Shown one piece after another: positions 6,902-48,994 of a stretch of 64,000 bases of DNA (position 1 is the first letter of the stretch; each line of letters opens with the position of its first letter). The DNA is from Candidatus Poribacteria bacterium. GTDB lineage: Bacteria; Poribacteria; WGA-4E; JAJDTR01. Both the position numbers and the translations under genes were made by a program. The notes beneath the pieces are model-generated. The model had not been told where the DNA came from, did not search any database, and saw only the letters and a list, made by a program, of their open reading frames with translations. The stretch covers positions 3,405,397 to 3,469,396 of the forward strand of contig OZ246960.1 in assembly GCA_965232235.1 (NCBI GenBank). Direction: 5' to 3'.

Positions 6902-8812
6902 ATGGCAAAACAACACCCTCTTTACCCCATTTCAAAGCGAACTGTACTCATTGGCTGCCTGTTGATTGTCATCAACACCTACTGGCTTGCATATGCAGAG
7001 ATGCTTTGGCACACGGCGCATCTCACGACGGTTGCATTATCGATTAATGTACTATTTACGCTGTTGATTATTACATGGTTGAACATGATTATTCGGCGGA
7101 TTCTACCTAGAGCCGAACTCAGTCAGCAGGAGATGCTCGTAATTTTTTCGATGGTCGCCGTTGGGAGCGCTTTCTCGGGCCATGACAACATACCGCGTTT
7201 GATGGGACTGATGCCTTATGCACATCGATTTGCAACCCTCGAAAATGACTGGAGAGCGCTATTTTTCCATCATCTACCTGACTGGCTTATTATCTCCGAT
7301 TCACGGACCGTTCAGAACTTCTATGAGGGGAATCGCAATTTTTTCACAGATGGCTATTTGACGCACTGGATTACGCCGATATTTTTTTGGTCAATTATGG
7401 TATTTCTCCTAATGGTAATTTTCCTATGTTTATCCACAATCATCCGAAGACAGTGGGTCGAGAACGAAAAACTTCCATATCCGATAATCCAAATTCCGTA
7501 CGAGATTACGGCACGGTCTGGCGGGGTGTTTGGAAAGCGTTTGTCAGTTGCCGGTTTTGCGATACCGGTGATAATTGGGCTAATCAATGGATTGCACGGT
7601 GTCATACCAAATCTACCACAGATTATCACCGACTATGACCTCAATGTATACTTCACGCAGAAGCCGTGGAACGCACTGGGAAGTCTACCAGTTCGCTTTA
7701 ATGCGCTGATGATTGGAATAGCGTTTCTTCTACCCTTGGATCTTCTCTTTTCCTGCGTGTTTTTCTACTTTGTCAATAAAGCACAACTCTTAATCGGCAG
7801 TGCAGCCGGCCTTCAAAACGTCCCCGGATATCCATTTTTTGGAGAACAGGGCGCGGGTGCGCTGTTTGCCCTGTTGGTTGTTGCATGTTGGATCGGAAGG
7901 AAGCACATTTCTTACGTGTTTCGTCAAACCGTTCGATCAGAACGGATGCAAGACGCCACCGAACCGATTCCCTATAGATGGTCGGTGATTATATTGTGTG
8001 TCAGTCTTTTATTGTTGATGGGATTTTGCGTTAGGGGTGGGATGTCGATTTGGGCGTGCGCCGTTTTTGTGGGTGTGTATCTATCAGTTGTTCTTGGACT
8101 AGCACGGATGCGTGCCGAGTTGGGACCGCCAGTGCACGGAATCGGTTATGTGACGCCGCAATATCTGATAGTATCATTGTTCGGCACACGACATCTAAGA
8201 ACGCCGAATTTGACGATGCTTTCACTATTAAATTGGCTTAGCGGCGCAAGTTACGCTTCTTTTCGCACACATCCGATGCCAGACCAACTAGAGGCATTCA
8301 AACTCGCGAACCGAGCGGGAATCCGGAATCGAACGATGTTTGTTGTATTACTTATCGCCAGCATCGTCGGCATTGAATCTAGTCTCTTGATTTATCCTTA
8401 CACCATATATAAAACCGGAGTTGCGGCGAATGCGGAACAAATTCACGCGGGTGGGTTGGAGACCTATACTTTCCTTTCTTCTTGGCTGATTAATCCCCGG
8501 ACCACGAATTGGTTGGCGGTGATTGTTCTTGCTGCCGCGTTCCTTTTCAATCTTGGCGTGATGTTCATTCGTATTCGATATATATGGTGTCCACTTCACC
8601 CAGCGGGGTACGTCATCGGATTGGCACCGAATACGCCTGAACTCATTTGGTTTCCCCTGCTAGTTGCCATGGTCGCGAGGTGGTTGATACTCAAGCACGG
8701 CGGCATTAAGGGGTATCGGCGCGCGATTCCATTTTTCGTGGGATTGGCAATTGGAGAAACGTTGATGAGTTGCATCTGGGCTATACACAGCGTTGTCTTC
8801 CACACTACCTAA
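6902..8812 (+). CDS. DUF6785/DUF6784-type polytopic membrane protein (putative peptide transporter-like)
   Basis: 636 aa, many TMs, RRQWVENEKLPYP, RMRAELGPP and PLHPAGY motifs. Confidence 0.75.
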   Translation: MAKQHPLYPISKRTVLIGCLLIVINTYWLAYAEMLWHTAHLTTVALSINVLFTLLIITWLNMIIRRILPRAELSQQEMLVIFSMVAVGSAFSGHDNIPRLMGLMPYAHRFATLENDWRALFFHHLPDWLIISDSRTVQNFYEGNRNFFTDGYLTHWITPIFFWSIMVFLLMVIFLCLSTIIRRQWVENEKLPYPIIQIPYEITARSGGVFGKRLSVAGFAIPVIIGLINGLHGVIPNLPQIITDYDLNVYFTQKPWNALGSLPVRFNALMIGIAFLLPLDLLFSCVFFYFVNKAQLLIGSAAGLQNVPGYPFFGEQGAGALFALLVVACWIGRKHISYVFRQTVRSERMQDATEPIPYRWSVIILCVSLLLLMGFCVRGGMSIWACAVFVGVYLSVVLGLARMRAELGPPVHGIGYVTPQYLIVSLFGTRHLRTPNLTMLSLLNWLSGASYASFRTHPMPDQLEAFKLANRAGIRNRTMFVVLLIASIVGIESSLLIYPYTIYKTGVAANAEQIHAGGLETYTFLSSWLINPRTTNWLAVIVLAAAFLFNLGVMFIRIRYIWCPLHPAGYVIGLAPNTPELIWFPLLVAMVARWLILKHGGIKGYRRAIPFFVGLAIGETLMSCIWAIHSVVFHTT

Positions 8813-9128
8813 CCAAATGGCTCCTGGCAACATTTCTATTGACATTGATCTTGAAAGACGTATAATTTCCTCTCGGTGCATCGCGTATAGATAGCACGGA
8901 AATTAGGCAATACGGCGACATTTAGTTGAGCCAGAAAGTAGGGGTGCGGAAAATGTGGACATCGGAACGGACTCCCTGACGAATTGGTCGAATATCTGAG
9001 GGTCGGTGATGTAATTCCCCATCACGAGCCGTTGCTTTTCCCATACGGTAGTAACATCCCAACTTAGTCGTTCATTCGCTAAGTGTTTAATGCCTACGAG
9101 ACTGGCAAAAGAAACGCGTTCTACCATC

Positions 9129-9364
9129 CCGGTAGGTGCGATTAAGTGACCGAATCGGATCAAACGAGTGAATAGCGAGTGCGATAGAAATCCTAAAACG
9201 AGTGAATAGCGAGTAATCAAGTGAGTGGACAACGAACGCGATAGAAATCCCATAGAGATTCCCCAAACGAGCGGATAGCTCAAGTGAGTGAATAGCGAAT
9301 GCGATGGGGATCCTAGTGCGATAGTAGATTTCGCGCGATAGAGATCCCTTTCTAACCGCGCCGG
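9129..9364. repeat. GTAG-type REP-like hairpin split by a nested stack of ~35-bp micro-elements (9141-9347)
   Basis: Flanks rejoin as CCGGTAGGTGCG|CTTTCTAACCGCGCCGG. Intact units at 9159-9193, 9216-9250 and 9279-9313, plus split halves. Confidence 0.85.
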
Positions 9365-9504
9365 CACCCAACACCAACCATATTTTTTGGAAATAAACCA
9401 CTTATCGAGCGTAATGGAGTGCGAAACACCCTTGCAGAATGTAGGACATATCTAGGAAGGTTGAAGGACAACTCTATGATAGCTTTCAGAGCTTTTAGGA
9501 AAAC

Positions 9505-10497
9505 ATGAGGGACCGTTCTAAAGAAATCAACCTTGTCGTTGACACTCTCGTAGCTGAACCCGGACAGAGATTGGAGGAACATCTATATGTAGGCACGATG
9601 GCGGACGGGACACCAATTCGACTGCCGATCGTGTTGATAAACGGCAGCCAGAACCAGCCCGGAAAGACTCTCTACATTCAATCTATTAGTGATGGCGACG
9701 AACTGAATGGTATCGCCGTCATTCAGGAGCTGTTACGCGAAATCCAACCCGACAGTCTGAGCGGCAAAATAATTGCCGTGCCCATCGTGAATTTTCACGC
9801 CTTCCATGCCCGGCAGGCTTTCAGTCCGATTGACAACATGAAAATGAACCGATGTTTCCCTGGCAATAAGCTTGGCACGTCGAGCGAAAGAATTGCACAT
9901 CGTCTCTTTAGCGCTGCCATCTCTCAGTCAGACTATTGCATCGACCTGCATCAGGGCGGAATTCATCCGATGATTGATGAGGTCCGGGTTCGCGTGGGCA
10001 ACAAACACTCGCAATACAAGGATTGTCTTGAATTAGCACGTGTTTTTGGTATCGGACATATTCTCGATCAGAAGGGACCTGAAGGGCAACTCGCGCAAGC
10101 TGCTCCGCATAAAGGCATTCCAACAATTAATCCGGAACTGGGGGGTTGCATGGGATGGGACGCAGGTAGTATTGCGAAGGGGATACGTGGTGTTCGCAAT
10201 GTCCTGAGACACTACGGTTTCACGGAGGGCGATCCCGAGTTGTCGGAAAGACAGATTGTTGTGAATAGATTGATATCGGTGCTGAGTGACGAGGGCGGCT
10301 TCATTGATTATAAGGTAAATCTTTACGATCATGTTGAATTACATCAGCCTGTTGCCGAAGTCCGAGATGTGTTCGGAAATCTACAAGACGAAATTTGTGC
10401 GCCTGAGACCGGAATATTCTGGTCACACCCGGCATATCCGTTGGCTGTGACCGGAGGCATCATTGGCAAAATCGGAATTCCAGTTGACTATGTTTGA
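9505..10497 (+). CDS. Succinylglutamate desuccinylase/aspartoacylase family protein (M14-like)
   Basis: DGDELNG, NRCFPG, IDLHQG, PELGG motifs and a C-terminal hybrid-barrel segment. Confidence 0.88.
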   Translation: MRDRSKEINLVVDTLVAEPGQRLEEHLYVGTMADGTPIRLPIVLINGSQNQPGKTLYIQSISDGDELNGIAVIQELLREIQPDSLSGKIIAVPIVNFHAFHARQAFSPIDNMKMNRCFPGNKLGTSSERIAHRLFSAAISQSDYCIDLHQGGIHPMIDEVRVRVGNKHSQYKDCLELARVFGIGHILDQKGPEGQLAQAAPHKGIPTINPELGGCMGWDAGSIAKGIRGVRNVLRHYGFTEGDPELSERQIVVNRLISVLSDEGGFIDYKVNLYDHVELHQPVAEVRDVFGNLQDEICAPETGIFWSHPAYPLAVTGGIIGKIGIPVDYV

Positions 10498-10708
10498 AAT
10501 ATCTATTTTGAGTCTTTCTCGATTCATGATTCTCATGTATGGTTGCTGTAATTTGTTCGGGTGGCTAGTTTCCGGCACACACTTCGATGGAGTAATAAGT
10601 CAAAACATACATTAGCACATGAGCGGGTTCTGTAGTAAACTTGATTTGAATTTCAGCGTCTTTAATTACGGCTTCACAACATTCTTGAAACGGGGGAAAA
10701 GAATTCGG

Positions 10709-41913: not shown

Positions 41914-42234
41914 TCTGTCACCTTTCATGTGCGACAGCCACGGGTGATTAGTCAAAAAAATAATGCTGCTTTTTGGAATGTTCTGCGGGCAACATATCTA
42001 GAAGTTCCATATCTTCAATAGGGAAACGCCCGGATATTTTCTCCGAAACAAGCTTGAAATCACCGGTGGTGTTGAAGTTTTTTTCGTTTCGTCGTCCGTC
42101 CTGTCCATCGTTTTCGTACGCTTCTGAATCGGCAAAAAAATTCATCAACCATACAGTTTTCAGTTGCTCGGTTCGAATATTTCTCCGTTCCCGATTTTCT
42201 TAGATCCTGGTGAAAAGTACATTTGTCGGGTGCG

Positions 42235-42386
42235 ATCAAAGGAGCGAAAAGCAATCGACCGAATGATTAGGGAGGGATCAAGTGAGTGAATAACGAACGA
42301 TCAAACGAGCGGATCGCGCGTGCTATAGAAATCCCGATAGAGCTCCCATAGAAAATCCCCTGCGATAGAGTTCCCATAGAGATTCC
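42235..42386 (+). mobile_element. Nested stack of ~35-bp micro-elements (at least four deep)
   Basis: Left halves start at 42235, 42254 and 42277. An intact unit spans 42300-42334. Right halves follow at 42335, 42347, 42359 and 42375. Confidence 0.8.
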
Positions 42387-42738
42387 ACAGGTATATATCA
42401 GACAACACTAAATACATGACGAAACTTCCCACAAATGATTAAATATGATTTTGCTGCCGACTATTCAAACAGCCTCTTAAGGGGATTGAAATGTAGTTGC
42501 ATTTTTATTTAAATTCGATTAGGTAATTGAGCCAAATGCCTTGCAACTTTGCCAAGCCTGCTTGTTGAACATTGTCCAGTCAATCAACGTTCAGAATACG
42601 CGATAATGATAGCATTGTCAAGATATTTCATCTTGTATTACGCTCAAAGTCGTGTATAATAAAATTGGAGGGTTAAGGGGCATTTACCACACCCCGTGCA
42701 GAACTATCGTTCGTTCATTGAAGAAAAAGAGGGGCATC

Positions 42739-48745: not shown

Positions 48746-48994
48746 TTAAAACCTGTTTGAATAATCAATGGGAAAGCCACTGTTGGTCAGTTGTAGGAAT
48801 TTTTTCAGGTTTTTATTCTTATATGCTACATACCTGATGCCCCGCTGGGGCTTAGGTGCACGGGGTTCTGGTGTTTCTATACACCTTCAAGATTTCTATC
48901 GCACTCGCTATTCACTCGTTTGATCCCCTCTGGGGCTTTTAGAGGCTGGTGAGCAGTGCGCCCCCTACGAATGTCCTTTTCAAACAGGTTCTTA
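48746..48994. mobile_element. MITE-like element with terminal inverted repeats enclosing two REP-like hairpins
   Basis: TTAAAACCTGTTTGAA (48746-48761) and TTCAAACAGGTTCTTA (48979-48994) match 14/16 as an inverted repeat. No ORF. Internal units at 48826-48852 and 48877-48937. Confidence 0.6.
48890..48924 (-). mobile_element. Single 35-bp micro-element inserted in a REP-like unit
   Basis: Reverse complement ATCAAACGAGTGAATAGCGAGTGCGATAGAAATCT is 34/35 identical to 9159-9193. Removing it restores CTATACACCTTCACCCCTCTGGGGCT. Confidence 0.85.

Follow-up and report, generated by a model that had tools for sequence, protein, structure and literature searches.

Positions 9141-9348 of the window, by which we mean the whole 64,000-nt stretch of the Candidatus Poribacteria bacterium genome analyzed here (contig OZ246960.1, positions 3,405,397 to 3,469,396), hold three intact and three split units of a 35-37-nt element, six in all and nested to a depth of three inside a hairpin-forming host repeat. 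On balance, we read this stack as a pile-up of a tiny, non-coding, insertional hairpin element of about 36 nt that is mobilized in trans and is in kind like repetitive extragenic palindromic sequences (REPs) or the small dispersed repeats (SDRs) of cyanobacteria. That the element is insertional mobile DNA can be stated with high confidence. The evidence comes from the anatomy of the element, strand-specific covariation in its stem, empty and filled target sites, the rules that its joints follow, its target classes and its orientation within them, and fast turnover between species.

The stack lies in a 692-bp spacer that separates genes at 6902-8812 and 9505-10497, and all of its units are read on the forward strand. 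The outermost unit is split, with its left part (unit positions 0-17) at 9141-9158 and its right part (positions 20-35) at 9333-9348, positions 18-19 of the unit being missing. Enclosed by these halves is a run of three units, two of which are in turn split by an intact unit. The run opens with the intact unit 9159-9193 (weight-matrix score 61.5). Next comes a unit split at the bond after position 22; its left part (about positions 1-22) occupies 9194-9215, and its right part, CATAGAGATTCC, occupies 9251-9262 in a form typical of nests of the 35-nt type. Nested within this unit is the intact unit 9216-9250 (score 47.7). The last unit of the run is broken after position 16, with its left part (positions 1-16) at 9263-9278 and its right part at 9314-9332, and surrounds the intact unit 9279-9313, which begins with C rather than A, has the tail GATGGGGATCC and scores 38.7. 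The left part of the outermost unit and the right part of the third split unit were assigned by reading the sequence. When the stack is excised in silico, GGTAGGTGCG rejoins (C)TTTCTAACCGCGCC.

A preliminary description of this DNA, made from the letters alone, had already proposed a nested stack of three intact and several split copies of a 35-mer, and that proposal is borne out. The intact unit at 9159-9193 matches the 35-mer exactly, and the 35-mer has two matches in the window at up to three mismatches, compared with none in 100 shuffles. The left half of the outermost copy was placed as above, whereas its right half had been set at 9332-9347. The description had also reported that no transposase lies nearby, in agreement with our finding no transposase domain in the seven open reading frames (ORFs) scanned between 3605 and 15648.

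The element belongs to a large family. A weight matrix built from the 271 genome matches of the 35-mer at up to six mismatches recovers 880 gap-free copies, evenly split between the strands, from the 5.63-Mb single-contig genome, and none from 2 Mb of shuffled genome. The proposed unit length of 35 bp was near the mark, the effective unit being 36 nt, with 34 fixed positions and two variable ones. It begins with ATCAA, each base of which is found in at least 262 of the 271 copies, has an invariant GCGATAG at positions 22-28 (counted from 0) and continues into a short purine-rich stretch ending in GATC and followed by two variable, mostly pyrimidine bases. One sub-type has an extra base in the tail. 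Immediately upstream, position -1 is a G in 219 of the 271 copies.

Each unit contains a small hairpin composed of two base pairs, a tandem G.A/A.G mismatch (invariant GA at positions 7-8 and 18-19), two further base pairs and a G-NNN-A loop. Among 865 distinct copies, mutual information is strongest for the position pairs 9-17, 6-20, 5-21 and 10-16, each of which is realized as GC, CG, AT and TA. The covariation test was repeated on 150 rows, of which 149 are distinct; the window contributed two of them and other Poribacteria genomes 148, picked from 173 candidates. In this set 93.6% of the cells are paired, compared with 63.9% in shuffles (none of 500 reaches 93.6%), and there are 208 double changes compared with 41.6. 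The covariation score is 0.949, as opposed to at most 0.198 for partners that were slid out of register, and these slid controls are paired in no more than 60.6% of cells. Moreover, the wobbles are one-sided, with 367 G.T pairs on the given strand versus 63 listed of the mirror A.C type among the 865 distinct copies, and in 722 of the 880 copies folding favors the given strand over its complement.

Comparison of empty and filled host repeats defines the joints. One REP family, GTAGGGTGGG-CACT-GCCCACC, is represented by 90 empty copies and by seven with a 38-nt filling, the net gain being 34 nt. These fillings start with ATCAA directly behind the last G (two of those listed have TTCAA or ATTAA) and end in GATC plus two bases, with two loop bases replaced. 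The pattern is similar in four further target families, where the net gain is 32 to 35 nt. The same joint behavior is seen in a second REP family with a CACT loop; three target bases are lost in a third family and one in the carrier repeat described below, and a GTAGGAG... family has insertions behind either of two Gs, one lying in GCG|ATC. The 5′ joint is exact, lying at a fixed G in each host repeat family or behind positions 22, 16 or 18 of resident units, and the 3′ joint is inexact, with 0-4 target bases lost and no target duplication; the inexact 3′ joint refines the earlier description. Among 335 lone, un-nested copies, GTAG starts exactly 10 nt before the joint in 63 and lies 5-12 nt upstream of it in 120, while the mirrored arrangement occurs only six times. 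This asymmetry places the unit on the GTAG strand of REP hairpins, near the tip. The hairpin repeats flanking genes for Y1 HUH proteins are recurrent hosts too, and the window contains an example at 48890-48924 on the reverse strand, a single unit in the tip of a GCCCCAGAGGGG hairpin repeat with two target bases replaced. This GCCCCAGAGGGG family flanks the IS200-like Y1 genes of the genus.

The element also lands in itself. Although units fill only about 3% of the spacer DNA, 279 of the 880 copies are nested in another copy, 252 in the same orientation and 27 inverted. The nesting bonds are few: the commonest lies after position 22 (125 cases, 101 in the same orientation and 24 inverted), the second after position 16 (50 cases) and the third after positions 18/19 (18 cases). 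Together with the empty and filled sites and the roughly 120 of 335 lone copies behind GTAG, these numbers uphold the earlier suggestion of an ultra-small, non-autonomous element that settles in hairpin DNA, including its own. As for surroundings in general, 766 of the 880 copies lie between ORFs, and 82 of the 114 "genic" copies are in ORFs shorter than 600 nt. Flank sharing among close copies, compared as a sign of polar copying and amounting to 128 pairs for the 3′ side and 157 for the 5′ side, is confounded by the flanks being repeats themselves.

The host of the window stack had been described as a GTAG-REP-like hairpin. This hairpin is real, being uninterrupted in ten paralogues, but it is only the center of a repeat of about 132 bp, which we call the carrier. 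In the window, the left arm of the carrier spans 9066-9140 on the forward strand, from the end motif AGTCGTT at 9066-9072 through the GTAG at 9132-9135 to the 5′ arm of the hairpin, which ends at the target G at 9140. The right arm, at 9349-9404 on the same strand, comprises a remnant of the loop, the 3′ hairpin arm AACCGCGCC and the end motif AACCACT at 9396-9402. Among the copies compared, the ends AGTGGTT and AACCACT form 7-bp inverted repeats. Genome-wide there are 34 matches to the left arm and 26 to the right, and 21 left arms are paired with a right arm. Ten of these 21 paired copies are empty, one has a single intact unit and ten contain stacks or partial units, the stack at 9141-9348 being the largest load among them. 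The empty copies have a perfect 9-bp hairpin behind GTAG, with ...GGTAGGTGCGGTTTCTAACCGCACC... uninterrupted, and in every loaded copy the stack ends with ...GATCC(C) immediately before TTTCTAACC.

Several loaded carriers have a common outermost unit. The left part of the outermost unit in the window, for example, recurs behind GTGCG in five or more further carrier copies, and in one carrier copy the unit is uninterrupted. One carrier also has an inner nest in common with the window stack: the intact unit at 9216-9250 and its outer right part are found again in the carrier copy at genome positions 5252689-5252979. Loaded carriers were therefore copied as units and then hit again, and the earlier proposal of self-targeting is thereby refined: it agrees with the 279 nested copies at a few fixed bonds, and part of the stacking spreads through the copying of loaded carriers. 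The orthologous spacer, recovered from nine genus relatives (L002-L010), lacks the entire block 9066-9404 in every one of them, so that the carrier with its load is itself a presence/absence difference. At two or more sites, the 132-bp carrier is present in only one of this genome and its closest relative.

Orthologous spacers tell the same story at single sites. We compared 1.2 Mb of the closest relative, a sister species, spacer by spacer; gains and losses in this comparison are not polarized on a tree. Five clean single-unit events were found, with net differences of 34, 36, 33, 35 and 52 nt. All five lie behind a G, with one to three target bases replaced and no duplication, in agreement with the earlier remark that no clear target duplication is visible. 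The empty sites that had been proposed as a check therefore exist both as paralogues and at orthologous positions in the sister species. Larger differences between the species are blocks that carry units inside REPs or carriers. Turnover is fast, as the two species have in common only 12 of the 84 copies that this genome has in syntenic spacers, and 12 of the 221 of its sister. We also noted one member of a sister-species gene family with a degenerate 36-nt in-frame unit, where three paralogues in the present genome have none.

The distribution of the element is narrow and patchy. A degenerate pattern of the unit matches 679-1393 times in every one of the 10 genus genomes and 219-227 times in all four genomes of one genus of another family; these 14 constitute our element-bearing set. 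The remaining 17 of the 31 genomes, treated here as the set without the element, are one of a sister genus with four matches and 16 others of the order with none. The reversed pattern used as a control has no matches anywhere. A scan of bacteria and archaea with one genome per species gave at least 110 stretches, and all 80 matches listed were titled Candidatus Poribacteria. Units of the second genus have an unchanged core (positions 0-28) and a different tail. At one locus of that genus (L159), units in which TCTT.. follows GCGATAG are arranged as tail-to-tail doublets about 13 nt apart, resembling REPINs (REP doublets forming hairpins).

These observations suggest the following model. The hairpin, formed on one strand only, would serve as the recognition handle for an enzyme supplied in trans, and a single-stranded DNA intermediate would be involved. 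The 5′ A of the new copy would be attached directly behind an apical G of another hairpin-forming repeat, which may be a GTAG-tagged REP, the central hairpin of the 132-bp carrier, one of the hairpin repeats flanking Y1 genes, or the element itself. The 3′ end would be joined less exactly, at the cost of 0-4 target bases and with nothing duplicated. Because each insertion would recreate a G|ATCAA joint, the same spot would stay open to repeated hits, leading to head-to-tail runs in which one or more initial bases are missing from the older units. Such repetition at one G would account for runs with a 35-36-nt period in which later units start with C, G or T rather than A, and for the three-unit run inside the outermost unit of the window stack. 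Hits on the three favored G bonds of a resident unit would yield Russian-doll nests, and the copying of already loaded carriers as a whole would spread ready-made stacks.

For the enzyme, the best candidate is one of the four Y1 HUH (IS200/RAYT-type) proteins of this genome, although that such an enzyme moves the element is a suggestion about which we are doubtful. The four genes, two IS200-like and two RAYT-like, lie at genome positions 763598-764083 (+), 5104139-5104636 (-), 5101454-5102140 (+) and 1114529-1115071 (+), and each has at most one full element copy within 1.5 kb. An inverted unit found 13-17 nt downstream of an IS200-like Y1 gene is conserved in four genomes, but it is possibly a mere old insertion. 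The preliminary description had asked for a correlation of the element with Y1 HUH/RAYT proteins, IS110 and reverse transcriptase. Y1 genes (PF01797) occur in 25 of the 31 genomes, including all 14 with the element. Reverse transcriptase (RVT_1, E ≤ 1e-8) was found neither in this genome nor in nine of the ten genus genomes, and in three of the 14 element-bearing genomes; IS110 was not found in this genome and was present in seven of the 14. A Y2_Tnp search matched nothing in the 31 genomes, and was uninformative because the control genomes gave no match either. Since reverse transcriptase and IS110 were not found here, Y1 is the only tested candidate left standing, and the correlation is permissive of Y1 as the mobilizer, not positive evidence for it.

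A number of observations weigh against this interpretation. With respect to the enzyme, Y1 genes are also carried by 11 of the 17 searched genomes without the element, and no Y1 gene was found in the sister-genus genome that has four copies. Furthermore, at the 22 loci inspected it is other hairpin repeats that lie upstream of the IS200-like Y1 genes; in relatives these are paired hairpins of the families AGCCCCAGAGGGGCGACAGGTG and CGCTCCAGAGGAGCGATATGTC.ATAG, which are probably the genes' own REPs. Single-strand transposition of the IS200/IS605 type shows a replication-strand bias, whereas the element shows none (213 vs 213 and 237 vs 217 copies, with the replication halves defined by cumulative GC skew), and a ragged 3′ joint with loss of target bases is not a known HUH product. 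The hairpin is weak, with mean folding energies of -4.2 kcal/mol versus -4.0 for shuffles under RNA parameters and -1.5 versus -1.75 under DNA parameters. Because these energies are at best barely better than those of shuffles, the case for structure rests on the covariation, and we regard the hairpin as a recognition shape rather than a stable structure in itself. The joined flanks of lone copies fold only slightly better than random spacer DNA, at -4.8 versus -3.8 kcal/mol. At the stack locus itself, an empty allele is absent from the contigs of three population samples. Finally, the 880 copies comprise 786 distinct 35-mers and 301 stem combinations, a diversity that is hard to square with a simple recent burst. 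The model leaves the lack of strand bias, the ragged 3′ joint and this huge diversity of stems unaccounted for.

For these three reasons, the main rival is an origin without any enzyme, although we consider it unlikely. In this scenario a nascent strand stalled with a G end at a hairpin would jump to a copy of the element, copy about 36 nt of it and return at a small homology, making the element a by-product of replication or repair at hairpins rather than a transposon. Such template switching would fit targets that are hairpin repeats and a 3′ joint that is inexact, loses 0-4 target bases and duplicates nothing, and the G at position -1 (219 of 271 copies), in donors and targets alike, would supply a 1-nt homology. 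Copying that continued into the flank of the donor could also explain the orthologous event that added 1.5 units (52 nt). Unpaired half units are present in stacks, and no mobilizer tracks the element cleanly. However, a 1-nt homology is a weak cause for the same 5′ start base in five unrelated target families and in every orthologous event, and most insertions end within two bases of one point. The strand-specific covariation of the stem points instead to recognition of a folded strand. Moreover, the element is missing from 16 related genomes that have REPs, the 17th having its four copies.

A host-selected structured motif, either a hairpin of the RNA within untranslated regions or a DNA hairpin bound by protein, with its spread being secondary, is a less probable alternative still. 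About 94% of cells are paired despite very high sequence diversity, and wobbles of the G.U type are confined to one strand, as selection on a structure would lead one to expect. REPs with G.T pairs have been argued to act as RNA (PMC3733652). Between co-directional genes, the element also has a modest excess of copies in sense orientation (300 vs 204), but this excess is small and the nested copies in it are not independent counts. Selection by the host is difficult to reconcile with the retention in place of only 12 of 84 copies in the sister species, with the use of both orientations, with pile-ups that destroy the hairpin of the outer unit, and with the lack of the element in most related genera. 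Rfam 15 likewise has no match at gathering scores in the whole window; a snoRNA match in 8000-10500 is at chance level (E = 9).

The two other explanations carry very little weight. An RNA copy that is reverse-transcribed at a nick behind the target G would resemble target-primed reverse transcription in its one exact and one ragged joint and its small target losses, but this highly improbable origin is already largely refuted by the RVT_1 search, since the enzyme was not found here or in nine of the ten genus genomes and yet all ten have their 679-1393 matches. Least credible of all is an artifact, meaning a tandem slippage array or an assembly collapse, as the preliminary description had itself considered: short-read contigs do break within 9186-9233, so that none spans the stack, but contigs from three studies match both flanks and both stack edges with 0-7 differences, Tandem Repeats Finder returned no row across 8500-10000, the six units are mutually different and nested rather than tandem, and other carrier copies as well as ten separately assembled genomes show this architecture too. 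Two further ideas were dropped, namely spread by ligation at GATC ends (most empty targets have no GATC) and recombination of the integron attC type (size and the conserved boxes do not fit).

More tentatively, the element might be a self-targeting micro-transposon with an undescribed insertion chemistry. It would be recognized as a folded single strand by its mini-hairpin braced by G.A mismatches, its exact joint would lie behind a G in the tip of another hairpin, sealing on the other side would cost a few target bases, and the enzyme would be neither a reverse transcriptase nor IS110. In that event, the hundreds of coexisting stem variants would represent competing lineages of the smallest structured mobile DNA known, and Poribacteria would offer a natural system for hairpin repeats that parasitize one another.

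Among known repeats, those of the REP/BIME/REPIN type (BIMEs being bacterial interspersed mosaic elements) of the GTAG superfamily are the obvious comparison. They have in common with the element a size class of about 35 nt, a high copy number and a mostly extragenic location (PMC3733652; PMC3116915). They likewise form imperfect hairpins with compensating stem changes and G.T pairs, with an unpaired conserved tag beside the stem; they occasionally supply in-frame copies to genes, and some REP families are described as inserted within other palindromes (same sources). Genes for Y1 proteins, too, are found in every element-bearing genome searched. There are also clear differences. The element has neither a GTAG nor a CGTC tag, its own tags being ATCAA on the 5′ side and GCGATAG on the 3′ side; the GTAG at 9132-9135 is part of the host hairpin, and that hairpin is found in element-free form as well. 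Its stem has only 2+2 bp around the invariant tandem G.A. In this genome it forms mainly same-orientation nests and head-to-tail runs (252 vs 27), whereas REP families mostly form head-to-head and tail-to-tail dimers and only rarely head-to-tail ones (PMC3733652; PMC3116915). Unlike the RAYT/REPtron arrangement, where a RAYT gene is bordered by the repeats that it presumably moves, the Y1 genes here are flanked by other repeats and not by the element. The element is a short extragenic palindrome, but by its tag and the flanking of RAYT genes it is not a REP; its dimer organization probably also sets it apart, although tail-to-tail doublets do occur in the second genus. Instead it behaves as a parasite of REPs, because GTAG REPs are its landing sites.

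SDRs, the subject of work by Elhai and colleagues from 2008, provide an apt analogy. They nest within one another and within miniature transposons. They are very small mobile repeats of Nostocaceae without coding capacity (PMC4390886, PMC5861425, PMC13756078). One of them, SDR5, inserts at a single bond between the third and fourth bases of GCGATCGC (HIP1), according to PMC4390886, and this exact one-bond insertion into a short repeat is mirrored by one target class here, GTAGGAGCG|ATC... HIP1 is not enriched in the present genome, with 123 copies compared to about 86 expected. The analogy has its limits, as the unit is 36 nt rather than 21-27 nt, the phylum is different, and the comparison is one by description. 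PMC5861425 states that no SDR-like repeat was known outside Nostocaceae.

Several classes of transposon offer partial likenesses. IS200/IS605 elements and their miniature derivatives are likewise not known to cause target duplication, recognize hairpins in a strand-specific manner and insert directly 3′ of the target base or bases. They have one hairpin per end, whereas our element has one per unit, and their target is a tetra- or pentanucleotide rather than a single G; the element also lacks a lagging-strand orientation bias and has an inexact 3′ joint. REP hairpins are also targets of insertion sequences, among them IS1397 and members of the IS110/IS1111 group, reportedly treated by Tobes and Pareja in 2006. 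These likewise prefer REP hairpins as landing sites and insert in a fixed orientation, but they are of kilobase size and have their own transposase, and IS110 was not found here or in seven of the 14 element-bearing genomes. IS91 and Helitrons are similar in that no target duplication is known for them, in an exact start beside a fixed host base, in a hairpin that precedes a leaky 3′ end by a dozen bases and in occasional read-through into the flank of the donor, but they are kilobases long and encode a Y2 or Rep-helicase protein. In contrast to miniature inverted-repeat transposable elements, the 36-nt unit produced no target duplication at the five orthologous events, although the 132-bp carrier does have 7-bp inverted ends. 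Among the papers listed by a literature search, none describes repeats of this kind in Poribacteria.

Even for model bacteria, ideas on the multiplication of REP-sized repeats still rest mostly on inference, and this family is unusually readable. Hundreds of nests and the empty/filled pairs fix the joints to the base, there is a strand-specific structural signature, and the hierarchy is clear, with the element inside a REP or carrier inside the genome. The patchy distribution over two genera of one phylum invites a search for the mobilizer. At about a thousand copies per genome, the element shapes the spacers of these sponge-symbiont Poribacteria, creates spurious ORFs and breaks short-read assemblies, and its copies occasionally add 12 codons to genes.

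Some minor observations concern the distribution of units and the surroundings of the stack. Unit density is about fourfold higher in the first part of the genome (0-1.6 Mb) than in the rest, at 83-180 versus 30-45 per 400 kb, the one exception being a bin with 71 close to the opposite end of the record; cumulative GC skew reaches its minimum within the dense region. RNA contigs from one metatranscriptome overlap single units with loose ends and for that reason come from other copies; DNA carry-over is possible, and these contigs have no bearing on expression. One further RNA contig covers only 9468-9645, outside the stack. To the left of the carrier, at about 8960-9065, lies the remnant of the 3′ part of a gene. 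This gene is intact in the relatives L006, L007, L009 and L010, which have the same neighbors and a long ORF in a spacer of about 1.2-1.5 kb, and it has been lost from this genome and from L002-L005; in L008 the spacer there is 262 bp. A second nest in the window, at 42233-42388, consists of three left parts, an intact unit at 42300-42334 and four right parts, one of them surplus, and sits behind the REP-like head GTCGGGTGCG.

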